Positions 18,905 through 55,539 of a stretch of 64,000 bases of DNA are shown here, piece after piece (position 1 is the first letter of the stretch; the number at the start of each line of letters is the position of its first letter). Source of the DNA: a virus; IMG/VR virus record IMGVR_UViG_3300027759_000003, positions 45,758-109,757 of that record; one strand, given 5' to 3'. Under the pieces are notes generated by a model. It saw only the letters and a program-made list of their open reading frames with translations, searched no databases and was not told the origin of the DNA. Both the position numbers and the translations under genes were made by a program.

Positions 18905-18972
18905 GGATCCCGCCCATTCTGTGTTTATAACAGTATACCAGATTCTGATATACTTATAAGAAAGCGGGGTAT

Positions 18973-19665: not shown

Positions 19666-19667
19666 TC

Positions 19668-24883: not shown

Positions 24884-24895
24884 CAAAGGAGAAAT

Positions 24896-25096: not shown

Positions 25097-25098
25097 TC

Positions 25099-25440: not shown

Positions 25441-25455
25441 AAAAAAGGTATCTAA

Positions 25456-27417
25456 ATGGCAGCCAAAAGAGTAGTTACCAGTAGTAGTATAGCCAACAGT
25501 TTTAAGATGAGTGTTGGACAATCTTCTGCTGCCATTCCAAATTCCCCGACAATCGGCACTGCTACTGCTGTAACAGGAACTACTGCTACTGTTGCTTATA
25601 CTGCTGCCGTATTAGGGGCTACAGCATCATCCTTTACTGCTACATCTAATCCAGGATCACTTACTGGTACTGGTTCTTCACCTATAACGGTTAGTGGTTT
25701 GACTGGTGAAACAAATTATACTTTTACAGTTTATGCAACTAATGCAAATGGTAACTCAGCGCAATCTGGTGCAAGTAATCAAATTACTACTCCTACTGCA
25801 AACTTAATTATTGATGCTCTTGTTATTGCTGGCGGTGGTGGAGGTGGAAGTTATGGAACTAGTGGTGGCGGCGGCGCAGGCGGATTATTATATTTTAGTT
25901 CACAAACTCTATCTCCTGCATCTTATGTAATAACTGTTGGAGCAGGAGGTGCAGCAGCCACTAATGGATATGATTCACAATTTGGTGCGTTAACTTCGGC
26001 TATAGGTGGTGGAACAACTGGAACTAATGGTGGTTCTGGTGGTGGTGCTGGTGACACTGGTAACGCTGGCTCTGGTGTAGTTGGACAAGGAAACAACGGA
26101 GGATCTAGGGGTGGAAGCATTGGTTTAGGAGGAGGAGGTGGTGCAGGAGGTGCTGGCGGAAATGGTTCAGGTAATGGTGGTGTAGGTGGTGCTGGTGTAA
26201 ACACATATTCATCTTGGGCATCTGCAACTTCTACAGGTGTATCTGGATATTACGCTGGCGGCGGCGGTGGCGCTGGCCATTATAGTCAACAGGTTGGAGG
26301 TGCAGGTGGTTCAGGTGGAGGTGGAAATGGTGGTTCTGCTGACACAGTTGCTGCTACTTCTGGAGTTGCAAATACAGGTTCAGGTGGTGGTGGTGGTGCA
26401 TTTGCTGGTTATAGTCCTAGTCCACTTGGTGGTTCAGGTGGTTCAGGAATTGTTATAGTTCGTTATCAATCTGGTACACAAAAAGCATTAGGTGGAACAA
26501 TTACAACATCTGGAGGATATTATTATCATACATTTACTGCATCAGGTATTTTTCAAACAGAGTATTCAGTAGCAAAAGCAACTGGCGGATCAATAAATAC
26601 TGATGGTACTTATTGGTATCACACATTTACTGGTTCAGGTACATTTACTCCTACTCAATCATTAACTGCTGATTATTTGGTAGTAGCAGGCGGCGGCGGT
26701 GGAGGAAACATGGGCGGTGGCGGCGGAGCAGGTGGACTTCGTTCTACTGTTACTGCAACAGGCGGTGGCGGTTCATTAGAATCATCAGTATCTTTAATTA
26801 ACAATACAGCATACGCAATTTCTATTGGTGCAGGAGGAACTAGTTCAGTTCAACATAATATTTCTGGCGGTCAAGGTGTAAATTCATCAATTATTGGTGG
26901 AGCAATCTCTATTACATCTACAGGTGGCGGTGGTGGAGCAAGTTATGCTTCAAGCCCAAGTAGTGGTGGTTCAGGTGGCGGCGGCCAGCGTTCTAATGGT
27001 GCAGGAGCATCTGGAACACAATATCAGGGTTATGCAGGTGGTTCAGGTGGTGGATATAGCGGTGGTGATGATAGTCTTTCATCTGGCGGTGGCGGAGGCG
27101 GAGCAGGTACTATTGGTGGTTCATATAATTCTGGAATTACTAAAGCAGGTAATGGTGGTAACGGTGTTCAAATTACTGCATTATCAACACCAACTGGAAC
27201 TGGTAAAGACAGTGGCTATTACGCAGGTGGTGGTGGAGGTGGTGGATATAACTCAACCGCTGGGTCTGCAGGTCTTGGTGGAGTAGCAGGTGTAACTGGT
27301 GGCAATAATGGTATATCTGGAACTCCAAATACTGGTAGTGGCGGTGGAGGTGGCGGTACTGGAAGAAATGGCGGACCAGGCGGTAGCGGTATAGTAATAA
27401 TTAGGTATGCAGTCTAA
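25456..27417 (+). CDS. FN3 + two glycine-rich domains (triad A, member 3)
   Basis: Same architecture as 22898. Confidence 0.85.
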   Translation: MAAKRVVTSSSIANSFKMSVGQSSAAIPNSPTIGTATAVTGTTATVAYTAAVLGATASSFTATSNPGSLTGTGSSPITVSGLTGETNYTFTVYATNANGNSAQSGASNQITTPTANLIIDALVIAGGGGGGSYGTSGGGGAGGLLYFSSQTLSPASYVITVGAGGAAATNGYDSQFGALTSAIGGGTTGTNGGSGGGAGDTGNAGSGVVGQGNNGGSRGGSIGLGGGGGAGGAGGNGSGNGGVGGAGVNTYSSWASATSTGVSGYYAGGGGGAGHYSQQVGGAGGSGGGGNGGSADTVAATSGVANTGSGGGGGAFAGYSPSPLGGSGGSGIVIVRYQSGTQKALGGTITTSGGYYYHTFTASGIFQTEYSVAKATGGSINTDGTYWYHTFTGSGTFTPTQSLTADYLVVAGGGGGGNMGGGGGAGGLRSTVTATGGGGSLESSVSLINNTAYAISIGAGGTSSVQHNISGGQGVNSSIIGGAISITSTGGGGGASYASSPSSGGSGGGGQRSNGAGASGTQYQGYAGGSGGGYSGGDDSLSSGGGGGGAGTIGGSYNSGITKAGNGGNGVQITALSTPTGTGKDSGYYAGGGGGGGYNSTAGSAGLGGVAGVTGGNNGISGTPNTGSGGGGGGTGRNGGPGGSGIVIIRYAV

Positions 27418-27476
27418 TAAATAATAAAATAATGATACAATGTTTTTATAACTTTGATTTTTTTGAAGGGATTTAA

Positions 27477-29003
27477 ATGGCAGTCAACAACCTAAATAAG
27501 GTAAAAATTCCAGGTACTGGAACTACTGCTGCCCGTCCATCTAATCCTGCTGTAGGAGATACTTTTTATAACGGTACCCTCGGAAGATTAGAAATTTATA
27601 CATCACAAGGATGGATGGCTTTAAATGCCCCAGCAGCAACCCCTACAGGTGTAACAGCAACAGACGCAGGTTCTGGCAGGGCATACAATAATGGCTCTGC
27701 ATCAATAGCATTTACTCCAGCAACAGCAGGTGGTCTACCAACATCATATGTAGTTACATCATCTCCTGGCTCCTATACTGCGACGGGATCAGTAAGTCCA
27801 ATCATAGTATCAGGTCAACAATCTTCAACTCAATATACATATACAGTAGTAGCAAGCAATGACTTTGGAACAGCAACATCTTCTGCATCTAGTGCAGTTA
27901 CTGCAACTACCGTGCCACAGGCTCCTACAATTGGTGCTGTAACTGGTGGAAATGCTTTAGCAACAGTTGCCTATACAGCAGGTGCAACTGGTGGTTTATC
28001 TAATACTTATACTGCTACATCATCTCCAGGTGGACTTACTGGTACTGGTTCAAGTCCTATTACAGTTTCAGGATTAACTAATGGAACTTCATATACATTT
28101 ACAGTAACAGCAACAAATGCTAACGGAACATCAGCAGCAAGTGCTGCAAGTAGTTCAGTAACTCCTGTTGCAGAAATTTTAGTTGATTACCTTGTACTTG
28201 CAGGAGGCGGTGGCGGAGGCGGAGGCGGTGGTGGTGCAGGTGGATTGCGTTCTACTGTAACTGCAAGTGGTCGTGGTACCGCACCCGAATCCAATTTAAC
28301 TTTATTACCTTCAACTAATTATGCGGTTACAGTTGGTGCTGGCGGTGCTGGTGTTCTGGGTTACGAAGGAACTGGTGCTGGTGGTGGCATCGGAGCAAAC
28401 TCTGTATTTAGCACTATAACTTCTCTTGGTGGAGGCGGTGGCGGAAGCAACGCTAATTTTGGTACTAACGGTGGTTGTGGTGGTGGAGCGTGTTATTCAT
28501 CAGGTCAGTCAGGTCCAGGAGCAGGAACTGCTGGTCAAGGATTTGATGGTGGTCAAGATACAGTTGATATTGCCCCATATCCTGGTGCTGGTGGTGGAGG
28601 AACTGGTCAAGCAGGACAAGTGCCCCTTACTGCATCTGTCCCTGGTCCTGGAGGTAATGGTACGGCTGTATCAATTACTGGTACATCAGTTACGTATGGC
28701 GGCGGAGGCGGAGGTGGAATATATCCTTACTCTTCTACTGGTGCTCCTGGTGGTACTGGCGGAGGCGGAAGTTCAAGTGGTGGAGTAGGTGGCGACGGTA
28801 CTGTCAATCTTGGTGGTGGCGGTGGTGGAAATTCAAGAACTCAAACAGGTGGCAATGGCGGAGCAGGTGTAGTTATTCTTAGATACCCAGACACTTTTAC
28901 AATTTCAATTGGAGCAGGTTTAACAGGAACTACAAGTTCACCAAGTGGCGGATACAAAAGAACAACATTAACTGCAGGTACTGGAAATGTGAGTTGGGCA
29001 TAA
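27477..29003 (+). CDS. Fibre protein: GTTAARP docking domain, two FN3, glycine-rich domain
   Basis: GTTAARPSNPAVGDTFYNGTLGRLEIY motif; FN3 x2; Gly-rich C-terminus. Confidence 0.85.
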   Translation: MAVNNLNKVKIPGTGTTAARPSNPAVGDTFYNGTLGRLEIYTSQGWMALNAPAATPTGVTATDAGSGRAYNNGSASIAFTPATAGGLPTSYVVTSSPGSYTATGSVSPIIVSGQQSSTQYTYTVVASNDFGTATSSASSAVTATTVPQAPTIGAVTGGNALATVAYTAGATGGLSNTYTATSSPGGLTGTGSSPITVSGLTNGTSYTFTVTATNANGTSAASAASSSVTPVAEILVDYLVLAGGGGGGGGGGGAGGLRSTVTASGRGTAPESNLTLLPSTNYAVTVGAGGAGVLGYEGTGAGGGIGANSVFSTITSLGGGGGGSNANFGTNGGCGGGACYSSGQSGPGAGTAGQGFDGGQDTVDIAPYPGAGGGGTGQAGQVPLTASVPGPGGNGTAVSITGTSVTYGGGGGGGIYPYSSTGAPGGTGGGGSSSGGVGGDGTVNLGGGGGGNSRTQTGGNGGAGVVILRYPDTFTISIGAGLTGTTSSPSGGYKRTTLTAGTGNVSWA

Positions 29004-34788: not shown

Positions 34789-34843
34789 ATTTTACTACGA
34801 ACTGGGAAAAATTACAAGGTATCGTAAGGTGATCTACATCACA
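34789..34843 (-). promoter_or_regulatory. Promoter TTGTAA-17-TAAAAT with bipartite phage motif and upstream CRP-like box
   Basis: -10 at 34789-34794, -35 at 34812-34817, GGTGA-N6-TCACA at 34828-34843. Confidence 0.7.
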
Positions 34844-35477
34844 CTGCTTTGGCTTGCTCCCCAATAGGTTTGAGGGTTCTCTTCAAGAAGTCCCCTAATA
34901 CTATTAATAACCTCTTCGTCAGACATGATCTCTCCGTCTGTGTTTATAAGTTCCATAATCTTATCTATGATCTCACCGTGGTCCATTAGTCTTCATCCTC
35001 ATCTTCATCAATTACATATGCAACATTAGACTGACCCTCGTGAAATGAAGGTGGGTCTTGCCATATACCCCAAGATAAAGAACTATCAGATAGGCCCTCT
35101 GACACTAAGTCTCCACCAAATTGCGATGAATATGTTTTAGTCACATTACCCATAGTATGTGTTCTCATCTATGTAACCTTCTGCTAACAAACCTTCAAAG
35201 AAGTCCCATATGGTTAATAGGCCTTGCTTTACTTTTGGGTCGGTAGCGGAATCAATAGCAACAGTTAAACTATTACCAAATTCTTGTATATCCTTGTATG
35301 TATAACCTAACATTATCTATCATACTCCTTAATCAAATTCATCGCAAAGTGAAGACAACAATCGCAGTCTCCATTATTCATGCTATATATAAAGTCAAAA
35401 TGTTCAGAGTTGTCCTCATATATATTCATTATTAGGCCGTCTATGGTTAGTGGTTTGTTAATTGTGGTCATGTTAAT

Positions 35478-35516
35478 ATTTTACAGGAAACTGGGGAAAA
35501 AGTCAATCTTTCTTAA
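35478..35516 (-). promoter_or_regulatory. Promoter TTGACT-17-TAAAAT
   Basis: Near-consensus hexamers; TTTTCCCCAG in the spacer. Confidence 0.75.
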
Positions 35517-35559
35517 TGAAACAATCATGTGTTATTATTTAAAGAAAGAAAACCCGGAG

Positions 35560-35633
35560 CGGCTCTGATGGGACTTGAACCCACGATCTCTACCGTGACA
35601 GGGTAGCGCATTAACCAACTATGCTACAGAACC
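35560..35633 (-). tRNA. tRNA-Asp(GTC)
   Basis: Reverse complement: GGTTCTG/CAGAGCC acceptor, CTACC-CTGTCAC-GGTAG anticodon arm, GTTCAAGTC. Confidence 0.92.
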
Positions 35634-35638
35634 AATGG

Positions 35639-35663
35639 TGAGCAGTTTTAAATCATGCTCAGG
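35639..35663 (-). ncRNA. Conserved 3'-UTR hairpin motif
   Basis: CC-TGAGCA-TG-ATTT-AAAAC-TGCTCA. Confidence 0.65.
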
Positions 35664-35671
35664 ATTTTTTA

Positions 35672-36688
35672 CTAAACTAGTTGCAAAGTTTTTTGCACAA
35701 CAGTTAGCAAACGATTTTTTTCTGCATTAGTTGCAGGGTCAAATCCAGAAGCAGCAGCAAACATGCTTTCGCCATTTGCACTACGAGATGAACGATACCA
35801 GTCTAAACGCTCAGTAAGTGCATTAAATGCGCCCCAAGCATTACCAGCAATCATGCCATTAAAATCACCAGTATAAATATCGTTAATCATATTTACCTTG
35901 TTTTCCCATTTCTTGATTGCACCCTTAGTATCTAATTCAGGTTTTGGATAAGCAGCAAGAATAATATCATTGAAATCTTTCGCTGATATTTCTTTTTGTA
36001 TCATAGCATGAGCCATCTTGTCGAATTCGTCCATGTATGAGTTAGCCATACCTAGTGCTTGACGAGCAACAGCAACCTTGCCATTGGCAGTTTGTGTATG
36101 ACGGATTTTGAAAGATTGCTTGACGCCATCTTTTTTCTTAGTACGATTGAGTGCAACATTAAGAGTGTTAGCGCACACAACACGAACGGGAGTGATAGAA
36201 GCCTGAATTGCAATAGAGCCATCATGGCTAGTGTTAATAAGCAAATAAGTTTTAACCTTATCCGCAACACCATTTGGGTCTAATACAGTTTCACGCTCTA
36301 AAGCAAGAGAGCCAAATACTACACGACCACCCTTAAGAGAGCCAGCAGTTTCCCAACGACCTCCACCATCAAGAATGTTATCGCCAAATGCAAATAACTC
36401 TTCATTTTGTAGTGGTGTGTATCGCTCACCAACAATTCCCAAAACATCAGTTTGAGATTTATCAGTTGGGTTTGTACGAACAACATATTGATATTGTTTG
36501 TCAGATACTAAACTAGATGGGATTTCTAAATCCTCTAGTCTAACATTCCAATTATTTAAGTTAGCAGCAACAAGCATTTCACTTGTATTTTTTTCAGTAT
36601 CAAATACTGTGCCAAGATTGTGCCATGCAGGCTCTCTAAATGAAGCAAAACTTGCTACGCCATTTTGAGTTTCTAAATCATGAGCCAT
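35672..36688 (-). CDS. DUF932/DUF945 (TIGR03299) phage/plasmid protein
   Basis: PAWHNLG, YTPLQN, ETAGSLKGG, NTSHDGS, TPVRVVCANTL, NAWGAFNALTE. Confidence 0.92.
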   Translation of the reverse strand: MAHDLETQNGVASFASFREPAWHNLGTVFDTEKNTSEMLVAANLNNWNVRLEDLEIPSSLVSDKQYQYVVRTNPTDKSQTDVLGIVGERYTPLQNEELFAFGDNILDGGGRWETAGSLKGGRVVFGSLALERETVLDPNGVADKVKTYLLINTSHDGSIAIQASITPVRVVCANTLNVALNRTKKKDGVKQSFKIRHTQTANGKVAVARQALGMANSYMDEFDKMAHAMIQKEISAKDFNDIILAAYPKPELDTKGAIKKWENKVNMINDIYTGDFNGMIAGNAWGAFNALTERLDWYRSSRSANGESMFAAASGFDPATNAEKNRLLTVVQKTLQLV

Positions 36689-36714
36689 TTTTATCCTTTC
36701 GGTTGTTTTAACTA

Positions 36715-36743
36715 AGTTTAGCAGTCATGACAGCCAATGTCAA
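36715..36743 (-). promoter_or_regulatory. Promoter TTGACA-17-(TGC)TAAACT
   Basis: Consensus -35 and extended -10. Confidence 0.75.
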
Positions 36744-36819
36744 ATAGGATTGGGGAAAATGGTTTAATCTTCTTAATTGGTATAAATCGGACATTTCGGG
36801 CGGGGCCGGGTTTTTGTTA

Positions 36820-36845
36820 GGGCCAGTTTTACGTCTTGGCCCACG
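36820..36845 (-). ncRNA. Conserved 3'-UTR hairpin motif (covariant copy)
   Basis: GGGCCA-AG-ACGT-AAAAC-TGGCCC. Confidence 0.6.
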
Positions 36846-36905
36846 ACGTTGATAGCCCCCTATCAAATTTAAGCGGTCCCTGCAGCGGATGCTACAGATC
36901 TCTTA

Positions 36906-37370
36906 TTAGTTCTCCTCAAGTGACACATCGTCTACAGTTAAGTCAGCGTCATAGTCATATGAACTTAATTCTGCATCAATGGTTACACTGCTTAGATCAA
37001 AGTCTTCAATCTCATCCAATGGGATGTTAATAGTTCCACTGAATGTAACGGTGCCGTATACACTCATTTGCTTTACAGGATTAAGATTAAAGTGTTGTGT
37101 TAGCGCTTTTAAAACTTCTTCTTTAGAATAGTTTGGGTCATACCATTCAGGAATTTGATCTTCAAGCCATGAGATGTCTAAACGACGCTCTGCTGCTAGA
37201 TTGGCATTAGTTCTGCCTTGATGTAGTTCCCATTCAAGATCAGTAACTTTATCAGTCATGAATGTAGGGCTTTCAGGTGCTGCATAGGTGTCAGGTATAG
37301 CCTTGTAGGTTACAAGTAGGTTAGGATTGTATGGAACAGATAACTGCTCCTGTGTCATTACTTCGCTCAT
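36906..37370 (-). CDS. Acidic hypothetical protein
   Basis: AAGGA RBS before MSEV. Confidence 0.7.
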   Translation of the reverse strand: MSEVMTQEQLSVPYNPNLLVTYKAIPDTYAAPESPTFMTDKVTDLEWELHQGRTNANLAAERRLDISWLEDQIPEWYDPNYSKEEVLKALTQHFNLNPVKQMSVYGTVTFSGTINIPLDEIEDFDLSSVTIDAELSSYDYDADLTVDDVSLEEN

Positions 37371-37440
37371 TAGGGGTTCCTTTTCTGTTAATACAATAAT
37401 ATCATCAAGATTGTGGGAATGCAAGTTCAGTTCTTAATTA

Positions 37441-37472
37441 GTCTCACATAATGAGATGTGATTTAGATCACG
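37441..37472. promoter_or_regulatory. Composite operator: RTCTCA-N5-TGAGAT plus CRP-like box
   Basis: GTCTCA-cataa-TGAGA-TGTGA-tttaga-TCACG; same arrangement at 38605-38636. Confidence 0.65.
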
Positions 37473-37505
37473 CTGCCCCGGATTTTTGCGGGGGGCAATT
37501 AAAGA

Positions 37506-37531
37506 TGAGCAGTTTAGAACTCATGCTCAGG
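37506..37531 (-). ncRNA. Conserved 3'-UTR hairpin motif
   Basis: CC-TGAGCA-TG-AGTTCT-AAAC-TGCTCA. Confidence 0.65.
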
Positions 37532-37585
37532 AGTCTTATCTCAGGAATAACTTAGCAATTAAGCCAAGTGCTTATCAGAGATAAA

Positions 37586-37756
37586 TTATTTAGTTGTGCT
37601 TACCATAGCAAGGCGTCTTGCGCCATTTGCTAATTGTAAGGATACTCTAGTGGTCTTAGAGTTGATAGGTGAGAACTTTACAATTCTACCTGTGATACCT
37701 GTTTTGCTTGTGGTGAATAAATCACCTAGTTGGTATGTGTATCCGCCTAGTGTCAT
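37586..37756 (-). CDS. Small basic beta-barrel protein, paralog of 38355-38525
   Basis: Not in ORF track: MTLGGYTYQLGDLFTTSKTGITGRIVKFSPINSKTTRVSLQL; AAGGA RBS. Confidence 0.7.
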   Translation of the reverse strand: MTLGGYTYQLGDLFTTSKTGITGRIVKFSPINSKTTRVSLQLANGARRLAMVSTTK

Positions 37757-37838
37757 GATTTTCCTTTTCTGTTGTGGTGGTTTGTTATATTAAGTATAAC
37801 ATTTTTGGGGGGGCAAGTCAAGAACCCCCCCAATACTA

Positions 37839-38261
37839 TTAGAGATAACGAGCAATAGCGTTATATGTGCTAGTGCTAACTGTTTCCTCGTCCGTCATTT
37901 TAAGGATACGGATAGCGTTCTCAAGTTCCTCTTTCATTTCACGATAAGTATGAGCATGGATTTGCTCAAAATTACGCTCAGGCTCTTTGGGAAAGTCTGC
38001 CTCATCTGTGATTAAATCAAAATCAACATTAAGGGTTTTGTTCCAAGAACGATAGTTAGTGCGTAGGTTTTCAGCCTTTGAGATGTTAGCAGTAGCAAAC
38101 TTAGCAACTTCTTTGCGCCATTTATCTACTTGCTTTTGGAACTTTGCTTCCAGTTCATCTTGATTTGTGTAGTCAGCATTTACTTGTGCTAACTTTGTTT
38201 CTAAGGCTTTGATAACCTTAGCAGTAGCGATTTTTACGCTGATGGGTTTGCTTCTTGCCAT
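37839..38261 (-). CDS. Hypothetical helical protein
   Basis: ORF track. Confidence 0.75.
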   Translation of the reverse strand: MARSKPISVKIATAKVIKALETKLAQVNADYTNQDELEAKFQKQVDKWRKEVAKFATANISKAENLRTNYRSWNKTLNVDFDLITDEADFPKEPERNFEQIHAHTYREMKEELENAIRILKMTDEETVSTSTYNAIARYL

Positions 38262-38308
38262 TTGGTTTGTTTCCGTTTCTGTTGGTGAGTTTGATGGGGG
38301 TATTAAGT

Positions 38309-38333
38309 TGAGCAGTTTCTCGTCATGCTCAGG
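38309..38333 (-). ncRNA. Conserved 3'-UTR hairpin motif
   Basis: CC-TGAGCA-TG-ACGAG-AAAC-TGCTCA. Confidence 0.65.
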
Positions 38334-38354
38334 ACTTTAGCCACTAGGCTAAGA

Positions 38355-38525
38355 TTAAGCGTTCTTTGCTGTCCAAGTTGTCCAGCGAGTTGAGCCATTA
38401 ACATCTAACTTAACTCTAACTGTGTTCTTGTTAGTTGGCACAATTTCGGTAATAGTTCCTACTACCTTTGATTTTTGTGATGTGTAGGTGTCGCCTACCT
38501 TGTATGTTGCGTTTGCTACGGACAT
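38355..38525 (-). CDS. Small basic beta-barrel protein
   Basis: AAGGAG RBS; TYKVGDTYTSQKSKVVGTITEI. Confidence 0.7.
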   Translation of the reverse strand: MSVANATYKVGDTYTSQKSKVVGTITEIVPTNKNTVRVKLDVNGSTRWTTWTAKNA

Positions 38526-38604
38526 GGTTCTCCTTCTTGTTGGTTTTTGCTTACTGTATAAGTCTAACATTTTTTGGTCAAAAATACAAATTATCTCATG
38601 GATA

Positions 38605-38636
38605 ATCTCATATATTGAGATGTGAGATATATCACA
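38605..38636. promoter_or_regulatory. Composite operator with perfect CRP box
   Basis: ATCTCA-tatat-TGAGA-TGTGA-gatata-TCACA. Confidence 0.7.
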
Positions 38637-38710
38637 CTTAATGCCCCATGCCTGAGAATAGGATATATAAGAATATAAGTGATAATACTATTAGTATCTC
38701 CATATGCCCC

Positions 38711-39439
38711 TTATTTCTTAGATGATGAAAAGACTATGTCGCTCTTAGAGTATACACACAAACCGCAAGATACGCAAGCCGAGCCAGCGCTTGAGATAAG
38801 TGGAATGGCTTTTAGGTTTTCAGGGCACTTAGCACCAGGTCGATTAAATAACTCCTTCATATCTGCCTGACCTATTGCAAAATTCTGTGCAAGGTATGCA
38901 AGGCGTATCCCATGATCTTTCTTTAAATTAACGCCTATCTGCTTATTCTCGCTGTCTGTTGAATAGTATAAGGATAGATTAGGAATATCCTTTAGCATTA
39001 CCGCTGCAGGCTGTACCCTTGTATATACCCAGAATTTTATATCTGTATTGTTAAGGATGATTTGTTTCCATGCTTTGGTGTACGTGTCATTAAAGAAATC
39101 ACCGTCCCAATGAATACGAAATAACAATGACGCATTTTTCTTTTCACAATCTTTTTTAAAATCATTAATCATATTCTGCAATAGATCAATCATAGTCGAT
39201 TCGTCAGCGTCTTTTAATAATTCCCAATTATGTATTAGGTTTGCCTTTACGGCTTTGTAAAGTTTTTCAAGTTTTCCTGCGTAGCAAACACTTTCACAAA
39301 CACTAGTGGCACCAGGGCATGAATAATTCTTTCCAGCGGGAAGACCGAACGTGTTTGCAATTGCGGCTTGCTTTCCATTTTTTGTAACAAGATTAGCAAC
39401 CTTTCTGTCAAATGATCTTTTTAATTGTGGTGTTGTCAT
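38711..39439 (-). CDS. GP88-like (radical-SAM-related Fe-S) phage protein
   Basis: FGLPAG..SCPGAT..C...CYA, FRIHWDGDF, FWVYTR, CxxCxxC. Confidence 0.8.
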   Translation of the reverse strand: MTTPQLKRSFDRKVANLVTKNGKQAAIANTFGLPAGKNYSCPGATSVCESVCYAGKLEKLYKAVKANLIHNWELLKDADESTMIDLLQNMINDFKKDCEKKNASLLFRIHWDGDFFNDTYTKAWKQIILNNTDIKFWVYTRVQPAAVMLKDIPNLSLYYSTDSENKQIGVNLKKDHGIRLAYLAQNFAIGQADMKELFNRPGAKCPENLKAIPLISSAGSACVSCGLCVYSKSDIVFSSSKK

Positions 39440-39445
39440 ATAAAT

Positions 39446-39484
39446 ATTTTAGCAGAATGTGGAGAAAATATCAAGTGTACGTAA
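39446..39484 (-). promoter_or_regulatory. Promoter TTGATA-17-(TGC)TAAAAT
   Basis: Hexamers at 39469-39474 and 39446-39451. Confidence 0.7.
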
Positions 39485-39542
39485 GGTACAAAACGGACAA
39501 ATCGGGCAGGGCCGGGTTTTTCTGCGGGGAAGTGCAGAAAAA

Positions 39543-39776
39543 TTATTCTAAGTGAACATACCAATCATAGTATTCATTATCAACTAACTGAGCGGTATCT
39601 TTTTCACCAAACTCATTTTGATACTCTGCATACCAAAAGTATTGGTCAGGATCAGATTCAATAGAAAGTATTTCAACTACCTCATCATTGTATCCAATAA
39701 AATCTCCAACCATCATCATAGAAGGTTTGAGAATATCTATTTTCTTTAATTCCATGTTCATCATTGTAGCAGCCAT
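39543..39776 (-). CDS. Hypothetical protein
   Basis: ORF track. Confidence 0.65.
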   Translation of the reverse strand: MAATMMNMELKKIDILKPSMMMVGDFIGYNDEVVEILSIESDPDQYFWYAEYQNEFGEKDTAQLVDNEYYDWYVHLE

Positions 39777-39861
39777 TTATTCAGCCTCAATTTCTGCTAG
39801 GGTTTCCCATAGAATAGGTTCTAGAATTTTTGCAACCTGATCTAATTTATCTTGCAAGTCT

Positions 39862-40158
39862 TTACTCATATAAGTCCTCATCTGCTGGCTCAATGAACCA
39901 CTCTAGGTGTGCGTGTGATACCAATGCGCTGGCGGTAGTCCAAGTGTTGCCCTTCCAACTAATTTGAAAGCCATCAACAACTGGTAATTCTATTCTACGA
40001 GAATAATCCTCCTCATAGTATGCGTCAATAGCCTCAATACATGGCTGAACCATTACTGTTGGTATTGGTGGATAATGATTACCTTGTAAGTGATACTTTA
40101 ATTGTGTTTCTAGGTCTAGCGTTGTATCTGCTAAACCTATTGCTGTTATGCTTCCCAT
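39862..40158 (-). CDS. Conserved phage hypothetical protein
   Basis: HLQGNHYPPIP...HLEWF. Confidence 0.75.
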   Translation of the reverse strand: MGSITAIGLADTTLDLETQLKYHLQGNHYPPIPTVMVQPCIEAIDAYYEEDYSRRIELPVVDGFQISWKGNTWTTASALVSHAHLEWFIEPADEDLYE

Positions 40159-40382
40159 TATTTAATTACGACCTCTCCGTTAGTGTAGAAGGTTTTAGTA
40201 TACATCTTACCTGTTGGGTCAGACAAATTATAGGTTGCGTATTCTTTAGCAAAGCCATAGTCCACGCATTTATCCCAAGCCCTAACTGCTTCTAGCATAT
40301 CGCTAACTCGCAGGGTATGAATTAACTCTCCATCATATGAAGTAGTAAGTGAATAAGTATATTCCATTAGTTTAGTTTCCAA
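40158..40382 (-). CDS. Hypothetical protein
   Basis: ORF track. Confidence 0.65.
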   Translation of the reverse strand: METKLMEYTYSLTTSYDGELIHTLRVSDMLEAVRAWDKCVDYGFAKEYATYNLSDPTGKMYTKTFYTNGEVVIK

Positions 40383-40556
40383 TCCATTAGTTCGTCAGCA
40401 GATATAGCGTAAGGATTACACTCGCAAGGCTCACTATCAAAGTCTACATTATTTCCTTGATATATCCAACCATAGCCGTAGCAGTATTCGTGCTCTAGTA
40501 TATCCATTAGTGCTTCTTTTACTTTACCCATTTGTTCCTTCTTTCTTTATATCTTT

Positions 40557-40578
40557 ATCCTATCAGATACAACTGACA
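40557..40578 (-). promoter_or_regulatory. PafBC/RecA-NDp-type promoter
   Basis: TGTCAG-N10-TAGGAT. Confidence 0.7.
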
Positions 40579-40678
40579 AAATCCAATTAGACGCCTTAAT
40601 CTGGGGAATTTAGGGTGTGATCTTAACCACACGTAAAGGTCATGTATAGATTGCGACACGCCGCCTGCGCCGGGTTTT

Positions 40679-40694
40679 TCGAACAAATGTTTGA
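40679..40694. promoter_or_regulatory. LexA (actinobacterial SOS) box-like site
   Basis: TCGAAC-aaat-GTTTGA, one mismatch to TCGAAC-N4-GTTCGA. Confidence 0.55.
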
Positions 40695-40716
40695 GCAGTT
40701 TTTATTCTTGCTCAGG
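40692..40716 (-). ncRNA. Conserved 3'-UTR hairpin motif
   Basis: CC-TGAGCA-AG-AATAA-AAAC-TGCTCA. Confidence 0.65.
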
Positions 40717-40877
40717 AATTTTTATTTATACTTTAAATGCTTTACGCAATTCATTTCGCAATCTGCGAATTTCTTTTTGTTGTGCAATATTTTGTTTCCA
40801 AAATAAACCCATAACAGTTAAGCAACCAAGTAGCGCAATTATTATTGCAATCACATCTAAATTAGTTATCATTTGTT

Positions 40878-41087
40878 TTACCCCTTCCACATTTCAGAGC
40901 CAACAGGAATTAAACCAATTTCATCAATTCCGCAAGCCTTTTCAAATCTTGCAAAATCAAAGTTTTCATTATCTGATTGAAACCAATCCGCAAATTCTTG
41001 AATTAAATCTTCATAAGTATTTTGTGGAATTTCATCTACAAAACTTTTTAGAATGTTTGCGGTTTTGATGTAGTCTTTTCTAGTCAT
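40878..41087 (-). CDS. Conserved small phage protein
   Basis: MTRKDY...DNENFDFARFEKAC family. Confidence 0.75.
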   Translation of the reverse strand: MTRKDYIKTANILKSFVDEIPQNTYEDLIQEFADWFQSDNENFDFARFEKACGIDEIGLIPVGSEMWKG

Positions 41088-41235
41088 TAGTCAGCCTCTT
41101 TCGTAGTAAATAAAGTGCCTAGTGCAAAGTTTTTACATTCGCACTTTTCTACATCATAGGCAAGATTATCTCCCCAAAAAATATAACCTGCGCCATTACA
41201 TTCATCACACTTAAAAGTCATTACGCTACTAATCA

Positions 41236-41421
41236 TTATGCTAACGCCTTTCCTCTAAGTGTGCCACGAACACCCAACACATCACAAGCAATTTTTACAG
41301 ATACGCCAACAGGTAATTGGTTTGGGTAAGTGTTTATGAATTGAGCAACCGCACCCTGAGAAGGTAGGTTGATATTTTTTACAGCACCATTAAAGGTTTC
41401 TAGTTTTACAGTATAAGTCAT
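41236..41421 (-). CDS. Small protein, paralog of 43416-43610
   Basis: VKLETFNG...FINTYPNQLPVG..RGK. Confidence 0.7.
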   Translation of the reverse strand: MTYTVKLETFNGAVKNINLPSQGAVAQFINTYPNQLPVGVSVKIACDVLGVRGTLRGKALA

Positions 41422-41454
41422 TTCTGACCACCTTTCGTTTTTGTTTGAGTTATT

Positions 41455-41476
41455 ATTCTATCAATTATCGCTGACA
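41455..41476 (-). promoter_or_regulatory. PafBC/RecA-NDp-type promoter
   Basis: TGTCAG-N10-TAGAAT; perfect CRP box upstream at 41505-41520. Confidence 0.7.
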
Positions 41477-41625
41477 TTTTCCAATTATAGGGGGTGTGTT
41501 GGAGTGTGAGTTGCCTCACATCTCCTTTATATTAGCCTGATGATAAGCAAGGGTTATCTCCTCGCCATACTCGGCTACTAGGTCGGCATAGACCTCATCT
41601 AGATAGTTAAGGTAATCAGACATTA

Positions 41626-41826
41626 TTAACCTACCTGAACCGCTACGGTGCGGAAAGTATTGTTAATGCGACCTTCATCTATTTCTACAAAATAGGCTTC
41701 AGTATTATCACCATACCAAAGAGCACCCTTAGATTTTTCTGCGGAAATAATTGTTCCGTCAGTTAAGGATTTAGATGAATAAGATTTACCAATTAGCAAA
41801 TCTTCTATTGTGTATAAGTTAGCCAT
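41626..41826 (-). CDS. Hypothetical protein
   Basis: AAGGA RBS. Confidence 0.7.
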   Translation of the reverse strand: MANLYTIEDLLIGKSYSSKSLTDGTIISAEKSKGALWYGDNTEAYFVEIDEGRINNTFRTVAVQVG

Positions 41827-41863
41827 TGTTAGCCACTTCCTTTCGTTATTTTCTTACTCCGTA

Positions 41864-41885
41864 AGTCTATCAGAATTAACAGACA
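41864..41885 (-). promoter_or_regulatory. PafBC/RecA-NDp-type promoter
   Basis: TGTCTG-N10-TAGACT. Confidence 0.65.
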
Positions 41886-41893
41886 TTTACAAC

Positions 41894-42005
41894 CTACTAG
41901 CCAGTAATCTCAAATAATAAGACGCTCAAACTGTGTGAGAAAAATCACATCGTACGTAAGTTATCCACAGGCTGTGGACGACACGCCATGCGTGCCGGGT
42001 TTTTT
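41894..42005. promoter_or_regulatory. Dense operator block (two palindromes, CRP box, paired DnaA boxes, GACAC, GCCGGGTTTTT)
   Basis: TGTGA-N6-TCACA 41934-41949; TTATCCACA 41961-41969; TGTGGACGA 41973-41981; GACACGCC 41980-41987. Confidence 0.7.
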
Positions 42006-42036
42006 GCAGAGTTTTTATTTCTGCAAAAATTTTTTA

Positions 42037-42153
42037 TTAGTTAAATTTATCTAATAAAATTTGTTTAACAATTTCTAATTGCGCTTCGGTTAAATTAGTT
42101 AATTCAACTGCGTTTTCAAATTGCTTAGTTATGCTTTCTGTATTATTTTGCAT
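42037..42153 (-). CDS. Small protein (38 aa)
   Basis: MQNNTESITKQFENAVELTNLTEAQLEIVKQIL; AAGG RBS. Confidence 0.5.
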   Translation of the reverse strand: MQNNTESITKQFENAVELTNLTEAQLEIVKQILLDKFN

Positions 42154-42265
42154 TTTTATGTTTTACCTTTCTACTATATTTTTTTTTATTTGGAATTGGT
42201 GTTGCCGCATTACTACGGCGCAATTCTTGAATACGAATAATTTTGTTTTTTATTTCTTTTAACAT
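42143..42265 (-). CDS. Small basic peptide (40 aa) with ArfA-like C-terminus
   Basis: RIQELRRSNAATPIPNKKKYSRKVKHK. Confidence 0.55.
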   Translation of the reverse strand: MLKEIKNKIIRIQELRRSNAATPIPNKKKYSRKVKHKNAK

Positions 42266-42698
42266 TTTATTATTCCCAACAATTAGAGCAAGTAATTATA
42301 TCTTGCTCATCAAAAAATTCGCTAGAAACTTTTTCATTACATAGACGACAATTAAGAGTTATCATTTATATTCTCCTTTTAAGATAAGTTCATCTAGCAT
42401 TTTTGCTAGAGGGTCTATCTGCTCGTCAGCAAGATAGTTAGTTAATTCTAAATCTTTTACAAAGTTTATCATTTACTTACCTACCTTCCATGAAGACCAA
42501 TAAGATAGCAATTCGCTATCCTCAATATAGTGAGAATAAATATTCTGCTCACAATTTTCGCAGAAACTATATTTCATATCATTTACGATAGATGTCGCTA
42601 ATAGATTAGCGGTGTGCTTACACACTTTGTTTAGTAGTGAATTCATTTTGAATTCCTTTCTTTAAGAGATTTACTTATTGTTCAATCTTTATACTAGA

Positions 42699-42720
42699 AG
42701 TATAACAGCGACCACTGACA
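42699..42720 (-). promoter_or_regulatory. PafBC/RecA-NDp-type promoter
   Basis: TGTCAGtg-N8-TATACT, matches TGTCRgtg-N8-TAnnnT. Confidence 0.75.
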
Positions 42721-42760
42721 TTTACTGACCAGTAGGTAGGACAAAACGGACATTGTGTCT

Positions 42761-42826
42761 TGTGATGTAGGTCATGTGGATAACTTGAGCGTGAAATGGG
42801 TATGTGATCTACGTCATGTGGATAAC
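42761..42826. repeat. Duplicated 24-bp composite CRP-like/DnaA element
   Basis: TGTGATGTAGGTCATGTGGATAAC (42761-42784) and TGTGATCTACGTCATGTGGATAAC (42803-42826). Confidence 0.85.
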
Positions 42827-42922
42827 CCTCTCAGACACACCCGACCGAGCCGGGTTGCATGTCCGATATGTCCGATATGTCGTGTGGTATATATCACTAA
42901 TTACATGCGTGTTATTTACGGC

Positions 42923-42959
42923 GTGTCGTGTTGACTTTTGGGGTTATCCCTGCTATAAT
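42923..42959 (+). promoter_or_regulatory. Promoter TTGACT-17-(TGC)TATAAT with GTGTC (WhiA-type) motif next to -35
   Basis: GTGTC 42923-42927, -35 42931-42936, -10 42954-42959. Confidence 0.75.
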
Positions 42960-43060
42960 TCCATTATAGAAAATTAAATATAGAATTATTTAGGGGCGTG
43001 AGCCTAGCAAGTAAATGTGAGACAAATCACAGTGAGCCTAGCAAATAACCCCCCCTAAAT

Positions 43061-43082
43061 TGTCAGCCCCCCCTGCTAGAAT
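43061..43082 (+). promoter_or_regulatory. PafBC/RecA-NDp-type promoter
   Basis: tTGTCAG-N10-TAGAAT; perfect CRP box at 43016-43031. Confidence 0.7.
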
Positions 43083-43415
43083 TGCAGGTATAGAAAGAAA
43101 GTCTCTTGAAAGGAGAACTACAAATGATAAACAATAACCCTAACAATCCCCTTATTTCGGATATTAGAAAAGCCCAACAGGCTCGCTATGACCGAGAGGA
43201 TCAGAGTATCCTTGAAGCGTTAAATCAGGCTAACGCCTATCTATCTGCTCAATACAATTTAGATGAGGAGGTTAAGTAGTTATGGAACTATTTTTAGACT
43301 TAGATGGTTTTGGTTTATATGCCGAGAGCATTGCCTTAGCAGTAGAGATACCAACATGGTTGTTGGTTGGCACTATTGCGTTCATTTATTCAATTAAATT
43401 GATTAGGAGAGACAA

Positions 43416-43610
43416 GTGATACCAGTAAAACTAACAACAGTTAACGGCTCGGTGGCAGACATGCCATTTACAAGCAAAGAAAAAATACTAGAGTTTATTG
43501 ATCAATACTCTAACGCATTACCAATTGGCACAGCAGTAAACATTGACGCACCGCTAGTTGGTATTCACTCAGGTTGGATACAAGGACGCAAGGCTACTGC
43601 TAACGCATAG
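43416..43610 (+). CDS. Small protein, paralog of 41236-41421
   Basis: VKLTTVNG...FIDQYSNALPIG..QGRK. Confidence 0.7.
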   Translation: MIPVKLTTVNGSVADMPFTSKEKILEFIDQYSNALPIGTAVNIDAPLVGIHSGWIQGRKATANA

Positions 43611-43616
43611 ACTATA

Positions 43617-43654
43617 TGGTGAGCATGCCTGCAGTGTGCTCACTATTTTTTTTT
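43617..43654 (+). terminator. Intrinsic terminator
   Basis: TGGTGAGCAT/GTGCTCACTA stem plus T9. Confidence 0.8.
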
Positions 43655-44606
43655 ATTATATTATTTTTAAACATGTATCGTACATCTAAGAAAAATATTC
43701 AGATTTTGTCAAAATGAAAATTTTTTCAGATTTCCAGGGTATAGGGTATAATCAATATATGTGCCAACACGTATATAGATACACAGGTTCTGGGCTATGC
43801 GGATATTGTGGTTTGGAAACTCATGATCCTGATTGGGTCAAGATAAATAAAATATACGCAGAGTACAAAGAAAAAGTCGGGTACTTCTACAATTCGACAA
43901 CCTGGTGGTCTATATGATAGAATATATGGATGCATTTACTAGGACTAGAAATTCGACGGGATCGTAGAGAAAAACAATACTCTATGAAGACCTGTTTTGG
44001 CTGTGGCAAAATACTCTGGGTAGCCAAAGCAAACATCAGAGCATATAACTATTGCGGTAGTTGTAAGTAATGCCATTCTTAGAAAACCTCGAAACCTCCA
44101 TAGCCGATGATGATGGTATGCCCAATAACGAAAAAGTTATAAACAATGGTTTGGCATTAAAAGTTTTTGAAGAAGAGGTTTGTGATCATTGTTCTTGCAA
44201 AACCACGGTAACTAATGAAATGATTGAATCCCAAACCTCATTTGAGGAATAATGAATTACTTAGTTCACACAGATCCATACAATCACTTAGATAGAGGTT
44301 TGTTAATTCTTGCAATTTTGGCAGGTATAACAATTATCGCCTGGTATTTTAAAAGATAACCACCTGGTTATTTATTATATTTATTAAACAACCTTATTAC
44401 ACCATACCCCATACACACACATATACCAAACCACAGTATTCCCATATATCAATTATATCACTATAGCCGCATAGAAGGTTTGACAGTTACTACACCATAG
44501 TGACTATGTATTAGTCATATTAGGTGGGAGAAGGTTTGTTATCTCTATTTTTCGGCTTCGTTAATTCCCGCCGAAATTTAAAATAAATAATGTTATAATT
44601 GGATTC

Positions 44607-51890: not shown

Positions 51891-53105
51891 GTGTCAACCA
51901 AAAGACTATCGGATAAAACTAGTCTAGTTAATAGTTTTAGAATGGGTATGGGGGCGTCTAGTGCTGCCATACCTGATACCCCGACAATTGGCACCGCTAC
52001 AAAAACTGGTGGAACAGGCGCTACTGTTACTTATACCGCTGCAACTTTAGGAGCAAATGCTTCTTCCTTTACAGCAACTTCAAATCCAGGATCTTTAACA
52101 GGAACTGGATCTTCACCAATTACTATTAATGGATTAACTCCAGCAACAAATTATACTTTTACCGTTACTGCTACAAATTCAAATGGAACATCTGCAGCAA
52201 GTTCTGCAAGTAATGAAATTACTACAGATGCACTAGTATCAGTTTCTTACTTAGTTCTTGCTGGTGGTGGCGGCGGTGGACAAGGTGGCGGCGCTGGCGG
52301 CGGAGGTGGAGGAGCAGGTGGATATCGTACAAATTTTGAAGGAACATCTTTATCATTACTTTTATCAACTAACTATTCTGTAACTATTGGCGGAGGTGGT
52401 GTTGGAACTGCATATCCAAATCCTCAAAATTCTGGAACTAATTCTTCATTTTCTACTATTTCTGCAACGGGTGGCGGAGGAGGCGGAGGAGAAAGTTTAT
52501 CTGGTAATGGTGGAGGTGCTGCATTTAGAATTGGATCAACTGGTGGCTCTGGAGGTGGATCTAAGGGAGAGCAAGGAGTTGCAGATGGTGGTATTGCTAG
52601 TCGTGTAGGTGGAACTGGTAATGCTGGTGGATACTCTCCAGTAGAAGGTTATAATGGTGGTGTAATGATTGGAACTCCCCAGCCCAATGGTTCAGGTGGT
52701 GGAGGTGCTGGAGGGACAGGCGGTTCAAATAATAACTCAATTGGTGGCGCAGGCGGAGGCGGGGCTTCTAATTCAATTACTGGTTCGTCAGTAACCTATG
52801 GCGGAGGCGGAGGTGGTGCTGGATACTTTACTACAGGAGGTGCTGGAGGTAGTGGAGGTGGAGGTAGAGGTCAACAAAGAGATGGTCTTGCTGGAACTGC
52901 TGGTGAATCAAATAAAGGTGCTGGCGGTGGAGGTGCTACCAATATTACATCTTATAATGGTGGATCAGGAGTTGTAATTCTTAGATATCCAAATACATAT
53001 ACAATTTCAAATCCTGGTGGAGGATTATCAATGTCAACAAACACAGTTTCTACAGACAAAGTAACCACAATTACTGCGGGTACTGGAAACGTAAGTTTTG
53101 CATAA
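51891..53105 (+). CDS. FN3 + glycine-rich-domain adhesin (triad B, member 1)
   Basis: SAAIPDTPTIGTAT-FN3-Gly-rich. Confidence 0.85.
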   Translation: MSTKRLSDKTSLVNSFRMGMGASSAAIPDTPTIGTATKTGGTGATVTYTAATLGANASSFTATSNPGSLTGTGSSPITINGLTPATNYTFTVTATNSNGTSAASSASNEITTDALVSVSYLVLAGGGGGGQGGGAGGGGGGAGGYRTNFEGTSLSLLLSTNYSVTIGGGGVGTAYPNPQNSGTNSSFSTISATGGGGGGGESLSGNGGGAAFRIGSTGGSGGGSKGEQGVADGGIASRVGGTGNAGGYSPVEGYNGGVMIGTPQPNGSGGGGAGGTGGSNNNSIGGAGGGGASNSITGSSVTYGGGGGGAGYFTTGGAGGSGGGGRGQQRDGLAGTAGESNKGAGGGGATNITSYNGGSGVVILRYPNTYTISNPGGGLSMSTNTVSTDKVTTITAGTGNVSFA

Positions 53106-54343
53106 TGGCAAATAAAAGTATAAAAACAGGATCATCAATAATTGTTAGTAAATCTATTGCAGTAGGTAATACATCTGCCGCTATTCCAAATGCTCCAACT
53201 ATTGGCACTGCTACTAAGACAGGAATAACAACTGCAACTGTTACTTATACCGCTGCAGTTTTAGGTGCAACTGGCACAACTTTTACTGCTACATCAAATC
53301 CAAGTTCTATTACAGGAACTGGCTCTTCACCAATTACTATTAATGGATTAACTCCAGCAACAAATTATACTTTTACCGTTACTGCCACAAACTCTAATGG
53401 AACATCAACAGCCTCTGCTGCAAGTAATTCAATTACTACTGATGCTCAACCAATACTTTCAAGTGTTGATTATCTTGTTGTTGCAGGTGGCGGTGGCGGT
53501 GGTGGAGTAGGACAAACCGCAGGTGGAGGCGGAGGCGGAGGTGGAGGATTTAAAACTTCTACTAATTTTTCCATTAGTGGCTCTTTCACAGTAACAGTTG
53601 GTGCTGGCGGTGCAGGTGGTGCCGCAGGTAATAGTCATCCAGGTTCAAATGGTGGTAATAGTGTTTTCTCTACCATTACATCAACTGGTGGTGGTGGTGG
53701 TGGTTCGTATTCTAGTCAAAGTGCTGGTTTATCTGGTGGTTCAGGTGGTGGAGGAACTATTGGCGAAAGTGGTGGTGCTGCTTCTCCTGCTGGTCAAGGT
53801 AATGCTGGTGGAAACGCAAATGCAGGTAATGAAGGACAATTTCAACAAGGTGCTGGCGGCGGCGGTGCTGGTAGCGCAGGTGAAAATGTTGGAACAAATG
53901 GCGATACAACTGCTGGTGGAACAGGCGGATCTGGCTTAAGTAATTCATACTCAGGAAGTGCTGTTACCTATGCTGGCGGCGGCGGCGGCGGTGGTGGATA
54001 CTATAACGTATTTACTGCAGGACTTGGACAAGATGGTGGCGCTAATGGAACTGCTGGTTCAAGTTCAGGCTCAACAGATACCCCAACCAATGCGGTAGTA
54101 AATCGAGGCGGCGGAGGTGGTGGTGCTGGTGGTGATACTAATGGTGGTGGTGGTTACCCAAATACACCAGGAGGCAATGGCGGCTCAGGTGTTGTTATAT
54201 TGCGTTATGCAGATAATTATGCTGATTTAACTTCTATTAGTGGAAGTTTAGTTAAAACAGGTGGTGGAACAACGCCAACAACAACAACAGGTGGTTACAA
54301 AATTTATGTATTTACAGCAGGAACAGGAACGGTGACTATCTAA
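53105..54343 (+). CDS. FN3 + glycine-rich-domain adhesin (triad B, member 2)
   Basis: TAATG coupling; same architecture. Confidence 0.85.
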   Translation: MANKSIKTGSSIIVSKSIAVGNTSAAIPNAPTIGTATKTGITTATVTYTAAVLGATGTTFTATSNPSSITGTGSSPITINGLTPATNYTFTVTATNSNGTSTASAASNSITTDAQPILSSVDYLVVAGGGGGGGVGQTAGGGGGGGGGFKTSTNFSISGSFTVTVGAGGAGGAAGNSHPGSNGGNSVFSTITSTGGGGGGSYSSQSAGLSGGSGGGGTIGESGGAASPAGQGNAGGNANAGNEGQFQQGAGGGGAGSAGENVGTNGDTTAGGTGGSGLSNSYSGSAVTYAGGGGGGGGYYNVFTAGLGQDGGANGTAGSSSGSTDTPTNAVVNRGGGGGGAGGDTNGGGGYPNTPGGNGGSGVVILRYADNYADLTSISGSLVKTGGGTTPTTTTGGYKIYVFTAGTGTVTI

Positions 54344-55539
54344 TGTCAGTTAAAAGATTCTCAGACGACTCAAGTATAAAGAATACTTATAAATTAGGTA
54401 GAGGTGCAACTAGTGCCGCTATTCCAAATACCCCGACTATTGGTGCTGCTACTGCAGTTAACGATGTTTCTGCTACCGTTGCCTATACCGCTGCAGTCTT
54501 AGGTGCTAATGGTGTTACCTTTACAGCAACATCTACTCCTGGTTCTATTACTGGTTCTAGTTCTACTTCACCAATTACAGTGTCAGGATTAACAGCATCA
54601 ACAAATTATACATTTACAGTAAAGGCAAATAATGCTAATGGTAATTCTCCTAACTCAGAAGCAAGTAATCAAATTACTACTGCGCCACCAATAGTTTATT
54701 TTGATGTTGATTATTTAGTTATTGCAGGCGGCGGTGGCGGCGGATTTAATGCAGGAGGTGGTGGTGGTGCAGGTGGATTTAGAACAAGCGCTGGAACGCA
54801 AGGTGGTGGAGGCGGTGGTGCTTCAGCATTAAATCTTGATACAGCAACAAATTACACAGTTACTGTTGGTGGTGGTGGTGCTGGTGCAACCAGCAATGCG
54901 TTAGGTAGTAGTGGTGTTAATTCTGTATTCTCAACTATTACATCAACAGGTGGCGGAGGCGGTGGTAGTCGCAGTTCTAATAAAACTGGTGGTACTGGTG
55001 GTTCTGGTGGTGGTGGTGCAAATGATTTAGGTAGTGGTGGTTCTAGAACTAGTAGCCCAGTACAAGGAAACAATGGTGGTGCTAATGTTGGCGATTCAAC
55101 TGGCGCAGGCGGAGGCGGCGCTGGTGGCGCTGGAGGTACTGGCGGTGCTGGTAACCCAGGAACAGGCGGCGCAGGTCTTGCTTCAAGCATTACTGGCAGT
55201 TCTGTTACTCGTGCTGGCGGCGGCGGCGGTGGTTATAGAGTTGGCGCTGCAAATGGTGGTACTGGCGGTGGTGGTGCAGGTTCACTTGGTGGCAGTAATA
55301 CCCAACCAGCGGTTGCGGGTAATGCAAACACAGGCTCTGGCGGCGGTGGTGGTAACAATGCTACAGATAATGCTGCTGGAAATGGTGCTAGCGGTGGGTC
55401 AGGTGTCGTAATTTTAAGATACCCAGATTCACGCACAATTACATTTGGCGCAGGAGTTACAGGAACTGAAAGTGGAGCAAGCGGTGGATACAAAAGAGCC
55501 ACAATAACAGAGGGTACTGGAAACGTAAGTTGGACATAA
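54343..55539 (+). CDS. FN3 + glycine-rich-domain adhesin (triad B, member 3)
   Basis: TAATG coupling; same architecture. Confidence 0.85.
   Translation: MSVKRFSDDSSIKNTYKLGRGATSAAIPNTPTIGAATAVNDVSATVAYTAAVLGANGVTFTATSTPGSITGSSSTSPITVSGLTASTNYTFTVKANNANGNSPNSEASNQITTAPPIVYFDVDYLVIAGGGGGGFNAGGGGGAGGFRTSAGTQGGGGGGASALNLDTATNYTVTVGGGGAGATSNALGSSGVNSVFSTITSTGGGGGGSRSSNKTGGTGGSGGGGANDLGSGGSRTSSPVQGNNGGANVGDSTGAGGGGAGGAGGTGGAGNPGTGGAGLASSITGSSVTRAGGGGGGYRVGAANGGTGGGGAGSLGGSNTQPAVAGNANTGSGGGGGNNATDNAAGNGASGGSGVVILRYPDSRTITFGAGVTGTESGASGGYKRATITEGTGNVSWT

Follow-up and report, generated by a model that had tools for sequence, protein, structure and literature searches.

What switches on a block of tiny genes in an uncultured phage is the question raised by a 64-kb stretch of viral DNA (bases 45758–109757 of the 109,757-bp IMG/VR record IMGVR_UViG_3300027759_000003; hereafter the window, to which positions refer), in which small open reading frames (ORFs) are repeatedly preceded by the sequence TGTC[AT]G-N10-TAnnnT. 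The record is a complete genome (CheckV completeness 100%, overlapping ends). An original prediction had listed five such sites and read them as promoters of the actinobacterial type that depends on PafBC, a pair of WYL-domain proteins responding to single-stranded DNA (ssDNA). We assign a probability of roughly 0.55 to the reading that the sites are PafBC-type hybrid promoters, which would be read by the PafBC of the host. It rests on a motif of fixed geometry that is conserved throughout the phage family and matches the cellular motif, and on phage genomes in which no WYL or sigma factor gene was found.

All five predicted sites were recovered at their predicted positions and strands, with exactly 10 nucleotides (nt) between the hexamer and the SigA-type −10 element (TAnnnT). 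P1 (40557–40578, minus strand) combines TGTCAG at 40573–40578 with the extended −10 TGaTAGGAT ending at 40557, and lies upstream of a 54-amino-acid ORF (40367–40531). P2 (41455–41476, minus) has TGTCAG and TGaTAGAAT and precedes the ORFs 41236–41421, 41087–41236, 40878–41087 and 40726–40890, while P3 (41864–41885, minus) has TGTCTG and TGaTAGACT and precedes the ORFs 41626–41826 and 41516–41623. P4 (42699–42720, minus) carries the TGTCAGTGG form with TGtTATACT, upstream of the ORFs 42473–42646, 42362–42472 and 42037–42153. P5 (43061–43082, plus) consists of TGTCAG, a C-run spacer and TGcTAGAAT, upstream of the ORFs 43124–43279, 43282–43419 and 43416–43610. As predicted, each site is co-oriented with a small ORF, whose start codon follows 25–52 nt downstream behind a GGAG/AAGG-type ribosome-binding site, and a TG stands two bases 5' of the −10 in 5/5 sites. 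The accompanying statement that a good canonical −35 is missing fits P4 and P5, where the best TTGACA match at 16–18 nt spacing is 2 of 6, and is only roughly true of P1, P2 and P3 (3, 4 and 4 of 6). Ten small ORFs downstream of the promoters had no match to any known family.

The list of five also left out a sixth candidate at 40204–40225 (minus), within the end of the preceding ORF and 45 nt upstream of the ATG at 40158 (ORF 39862–40158). It consists of TGTCTG followed by ACC, and of TAAGAT without a TG; its motif is kept in relatives while the spacer varies. Orthologous sites of P1 are also present in relatives. GTC occupies −27 to −25 within the hexamer (−28 to −23) in P1–P5 and in the sixth candidate. 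Outside the motif the sequences of the five sites are unrelated, and a duplicated promoter cassette was rejected because the flanks differ.

The motif was enriched in the window, with 7 matches compared with 1.5 expected from shuffles, and five of the matches fell inside 2.5 kb. A genome-wide count, which had been proposed as a check, gave 8 matches to TGTCNG with a 10-nt spacer, 6/8 of them between window positions 34000 and 44000. Control spacers of 6–9 and 11–14 nt gave 1–5 matches genome-wide and 0–1 in that interval, so that among the nine spacings compared clustering was seen only with the 10-nt gap to the −10. Five, and probably six, units of tiny genes appear to start from sites that resemble PafBC promoters.

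The published PafBC consensus is tGTCgg(N10)tA(N3)T, with the 5' part at −23 to −28 and no −35, and the GTC of this '−26 element' is strictly conserved across actinobacteria (PMC8635444). PafB reads the element and PafC touches region 4 of the sigma factor; the complex on the promoter forms only with ssDNA (PMC8635444; PMC11804915; PMC6789036). The phage sites agree with the published consensus and cryo-EM structure (PMC8635444) in sequence, position (−28 to −23) and spacing. Like the PafBC-dependent promoters known from Mycobacterium and other Actinobacteria (RecA-NDp, recA P1-type), they carry GTC in the −28 to −23 hexamer, keep 10 nt between it and a SigA-type TAnnnT, are not palindromic and, in part, lack a usable −35. 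Unlike those promoters, they are clustered before tiny genes of no known family and not before repair genes, and they have CRP-like boxes upstream.

A search of IMG/VR with the GP88-family protein yielded at least 378 related stretches, and 80 of these were retained. On these 80 contigs the motif was concentrated near the small-gene block on the strand of the genes, switching to the other strand past the divergence point. In an unbiased test, promoters on the same contigs were anchored only by TGnTAnnnT upstream of ORFs with a ribosome-binding site, giving 902 unique contexts. GTC stood at −27 to −25 in 240 of them (1% expected), compared with at most 59 at any other offset. Within the 240 contexts, the frequencies of T at −28, A at −24 and G at −23 were 1.00, 0.83 and 0.98. 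The spacer of family sites is C-rich, the TG of the extended −10 is present in 68% of them, and one exact 18-base form of the site occurs on more than 120 viral contigs. Four other complete relatives carried 4–9 clustered, co-directional sites each, compared with 2–3 control matches. A distant relative, IMGVR_UViG_3300020044_005177, whose portal is 63% identical, carries 26 promoters of this class between 26.4 and 35.1 kb, all in one direction and spaced by about 200 nt; none has a −35, many lack the TG, and most serve leaderless tiny genes. ACCC follows the hexamer in all 26, and a GC hairpin stands in place of the −35. The promoter block of this relative has 51% GC and its contig 44% GC.

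On the cellular side, motif matches were counted against a reversed control in 81 actinobacterial genomes, 65 of which had WYL genes. Genomes with at least two WYL genes held 354 matches (control 120), while those without WYL genes held 109 (control 110). The strongest single genome had 73 matches and no control match, and three small genomes (1.3–1.8 Mb) with an adjacent WYL pair had 8, 21 and 17 (controls 0, 0 and 1). The TGTCAG form was found upstream of recA in three Streptomyces-like genomes. One WYL-pair genome of 1.5 Mb and about 39% GC had the motif directly upstream of the genes for AddB-like, DprA and DUF763 proteins; its recA was preceded by a GTC variant. The WYL pair was also present in 5/5 small rhodopsin-bearing genomes, with no motif in their recA upstream regions. 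As a separate observation, in the small high-GC actinobacteria G222 and G274, which carry a WYL pair, the motif lies upstream of genes for an HsdM type I restriction methylase, a Cas9-like protein and a DUF2779 nuclease-like protein; this hints that the PafBC-type regulon of these two genomes may include defence genes. The tallies from the 81 genomes include the unpublished genomes G003, G020 and G050, and further scans of 401 genomes include the likewise unpublished G084, G090, G122, G176, G228, G320, G338, G345 and G393; no single claim depends on any of these.

Phage and cellular sites also resemble each other beyond the hexamer. The trinucleotides that most often follow it in 278 unique phage sites are ACC (59) and TGG (53), and both recur in cellular sites, ACC in 13/46 sites of the three small WYL-pair genomes. 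The common follow-on bases would be difficult to account for if phage and cellular sites were not read by one kind of protein, and the TGTCAG form with TGG or ACC is a further trait that the phage promoters share with those of WYL-pair genomes.

Whether the phage might supply the reader itself was examined in the complete genome and its relatives. Neither a WYL domain nor a sigma-70 region 2 was found in five complete genomes (this phage and four relatives), and no WYL domain in five further partial relatives. A phage-encoded PafBC mimic, which had been offered as an alternative with its gene placed outside the window, was rejected on this result, as was a phage sigma factor. A non-WYL activator or adaptor of the phage could still be made from ordinary early promoters, read TGTCAG at −26 and recruit the host RNA polymerase, in the manner of the MotA/AsiA-dependent middle promoters of phage T4. 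Those promoters likewise combine a strong −10 with a fixed upstream box (the MotA box at −30) in place of a −35, weak or absent here, and have ordinary early promoters alongside; the parallel has been drawn for PafBC itself (PMC8635444). Ordinary promoters in the same region could provide such a factor first, the small genes without a known family leave room for an unrecognised small protein, and less variation is tolerated in the hexamer than in Mycobacterium smegmatis. T4, however, makes the activator itself and remodels region 4 of sigma ('sigma appropriation'), whereas here neither a candidate DNA-binding protein nor a WYL protein or sigma factor of the phage was found, and the box corresponds to the site of a host activator. 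For a phage adaptor, moreover, the agreement with the cellular PafBC element in the hexamer, the exact offset and the follow-on bases would have to be a coincidence. We consider it unlikely.

Host PafBC could act on these sites as follows. The housekeeping RNA polymerase of the host would read the extended −10, and TGTCAG at −28 to −23 would be read by the host PafB/PafC heterodimer. With ssDNA bound, this heterodimer would fit in between the DNA and sigma region 4, a mode of action called 'sigma adaptation'. ssDNA appearing in the infected cell, whether from phage replication, end processing or breakdown of host DNA, would boost or switch on the block of tiny genes that surrounds the divergence point.

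Several observations weigh against this reading. The prediction of PafBC promoters stands as far as sequence, position, spacing, actinophage traits and the enrichment in WYL-pair cells are concerned, while we infer the presence of PafBC in the host, its binding at these sites and the timing. T at −28 and G at −23 are invariant in the phage family, compared with strong conservation of only GTC in M. smegmatis. This stringency, the usual TG of the extended −10 and the good −35 boxes that coexist with the hexamer in some orthologues all differ from the mycobacterial picture. No WYL gene was found in 10/11 sampled actinobacterial genomes of at most 1.6 Mb, and the commonest lake host order was not recognised in the genome sample. 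BillNye, Blueeyedbeauty and Paradiddles, the cultured Streptomyces phages closest in DnaE, showed no enrichment (2–4 matches, 2–4 in the control), and the idea that the motif is a habit common to the nearest cultured relatives was rejected. Family sites further retain a weak −35-like signal (T at −35, 0.59; G at −33, 0.61). At the DUF932 promoter of relatives the hexamer stands beside a perfect TTGACA, and in this phage that promoter is kept and the hexamer lost. Since it coexists with a perfect TTGACA and with the weak family signal, the hexamer is not simply a substitute for the −35. Across the promoters compared, it is best described as an extra element that selection has kept at one set position; some promoters would manage with it and no −35, others without it.

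The same data bear on a simpler explanation, in which SigA alone would use the extended −10, and TGTCAG with its C-rich spacer would be a spacer feature or the site of another host factor, unrelated to PafBC. The TG in all five sites, the 3–4 of 6 matches to the −35 in three of them, the residual −35 signal of the family and the dispensable element at the DUF932 promoter speak for this explanation. It leaves unexplained, however, six near-invariant bases at one fixed offset; we know of no RNA polymerase contact that accounts for them. Nor does it fit the relative whose 26 sites have no −35 and often no TG, or the way the motif tracks WYL pairs in cells, and we regard it as quite improbable.

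A repressor offers another way to account for an element that is also found where the promoter has a perfect −35 of its own. TGTCAG would be a half operator, with CTG at −16 to −14 as its partial mirror, through which a phage or host repressor would shut the units off. The frequency of C at −16 is indeed raised, to 0.60 in the GTC class from 0.23 in other promoters, but A at −13 is not enriched. The mirror comprises only three bases (CAG/CTG), on which ground a palindromic operator was rejected, and two of the three belong to the extended −10 itself. An operator would also have no need of an exact offset from the −10, and PafBC sites are described as non-palindromic (PMC6789036). We hold this to be very improbable indeed.

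If host PafBC does read the sites, the order of expression would probably differ from the one first proposed, in which they drove the first, innermost early genes. Ordinary promoters of the TTGACw-17-TAnnnT class adjoin them. A strong one lies at 42931–42959 (plus), about 100 nt upstream of P5, and consists of TTGACT-17-TATAAT with a TG (11/12 matches); others are found on the minus strand at 39474–39446, 37821–37793, 36743–36715 and 35506–35478. Judged by sequence, activator-independent promoters serve the same region as P1–P5. They would fire first and need no helper. Because such promoters adjoin, the TGTCAG class fits a delayed class, coupled to replication or damage, better than 'first genes'.

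Several of the ordinary promoters are leaderless, ending 6–8 nt 5' of a start codon. TTGAnn-17/18-TAnnnT sequences at 39446–39474 (minus), 35478–35506 (minus) and 43894–43923 (plus) stand 6–7 nt before an ATG, and the genes behind them (GP88 and two small ORFs) have no ribosome-binding site; their transcripts are probably leaderless mRNAs. Leaderless mRNAs are common in actinobacteria.

The identity of the host was approached through the gene content of the phage, which encodes a portal, a protease, a capsid protein and a DnaE-type polymerase that is 53–55% identical to those of large Streptomyces phages. It also encodes a GP88-family protein and a WhiB protein (44 bits, above the cut-off) with four cysteines and a GVWGG turn. 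From the WhiB, the GP88 family, the DnaE nearest to that of Streptomyces phages and the leaderless promoters, we take the host to be an actinobacterium, and not a mycobacterium in particular; in the literature WhiB is treated as a protein of Actinobacteria and actinophages only (PMC10202952; PMC6802176). A mycobacteriophage origin was rejected in view of the GC content of 36.7% and the absence of a nucleotide match among 50,697 deposited phages. The choice of M. smegmatis as the test host, put forward for reporter assays, finds no support in an uncultured phage with this GC content.

Attempts to narrow the host further gave no result. Cellular homologues of the phage WhiB were all at most 47% identical and indicated no host. 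Matches of 67–70% identity were rejected as a lead, as they lie on contigs of 33–35% GC in ill-matching metagenome-assembled genomes. These contigs had been binned in CAYVOK01 ('Acidimicrobiaceae', about 70% GC) and CAYZIG01 ('Saccharibacteria') and are almost certainly mis-binned phage DNA. A secreted phage protein of 475 amino acids had no match in 401 genomes, and rhodopsin, used as a marker, revealed no small low-GC lake genomes in the genome sample. A search with a sugar epimerase of the phage found phage relatives only. This epimerase is encoded, together with a glycosyltransferase and an FkbM-type methyltransferase, in a low-GC block (32–35%) at 13726–20450, and thousands of copies that are 85–95% identical occur in metagenomes, every one on phage-sized contigs. 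Two blocks of higher GC (42–46%), at 21738–29003 and 51891–55539, encode at least 8 paralogous proteins with fibronectin type III and glycine-rich (PF21722) domains, probably fibre or receptor-binding proteins that have diversified as a set.

Other control elements lie among the promoters. Boxes resembling CRP sites (TGTGA-N6-TCACA, at most 1 mismatch) numbered seven in the window, four of them perfect, compared with 2.9 expected, and all seven were confined to 8 kb (34828–43031). Four of the boxes stand upstream of P1, P2, P3 and P5 at roughly helically phased positions. The one at 40616–40631 has 1 mismatch and is centred at −73.5 from P1; those at 41505–41520, 41934–41949 and 43016–43031 are perfect and centred at −64.5 from P2, −84.5 from P3 and −65.5 from P5. 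Their presence at 4/5 sites suggests that nutrition provides a second input. Three perfect DnaA boxes (TTATCCACA; 41961–41969, 42775–42783 and 42817–42825) and a short tandem repeat (42860–42889) lie in or beside the divergent intergenic region and may mark a replication origin or a DnaA-titrating site. A near-perfect SOS (LexA) box of the Gram-positive/actinobacterial form GAAC-N4-GTTT is found at 40679–40694, between the end of the P2 unit and P1. The P4 unit ends in a double hairpin without a U-tail (41972–42036, minus; −22.2 kcal/mol, z −5.3), a form common in actinobacteria, and the P5 unit in a hairpin with a U-run (43612–43660, plus; z −4.3).

A link between phage gene expression and the ssDNA sensing of the host has a precedent in temperate phages coupled to the SOS response (LexA/RecA). 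There the route is derepression of a prophage, whereas the route proposed here would be activation by a WYL-domain factor, in a phage for which the search for signs of a temperate lifestyle found no tyrosine integrase (serine integrases were not searched).

PafBC-type promoters have so far been known only as the LexA-independent damage regulon of the cell, and our literature searches found no report of a phage carrying them. With slightly less than even confidence, we propose that expression of one small-gene block in an abundant family of lake actinophages is licensed by the PafBC ssDNA alarm of the host, so that the phage's own replication or DNA ends would time these genes. No earlier phage would then be known to have borrowed 'sigma adaptation' through promoter mimicry. 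If this is true, a phage is able to exploit a WYL-domain ssDNA sensor by imitating the promoter it acts on, and PafBC would have a role in infection besides repair. Phage genes would be raised by the same signal as host repair and, in some small actinobacteria, apparently also restriction and Cas9-like genes. The motif would then provide a simple sequence mark for one temporal gene class in very abundant, uncultured lake phages.

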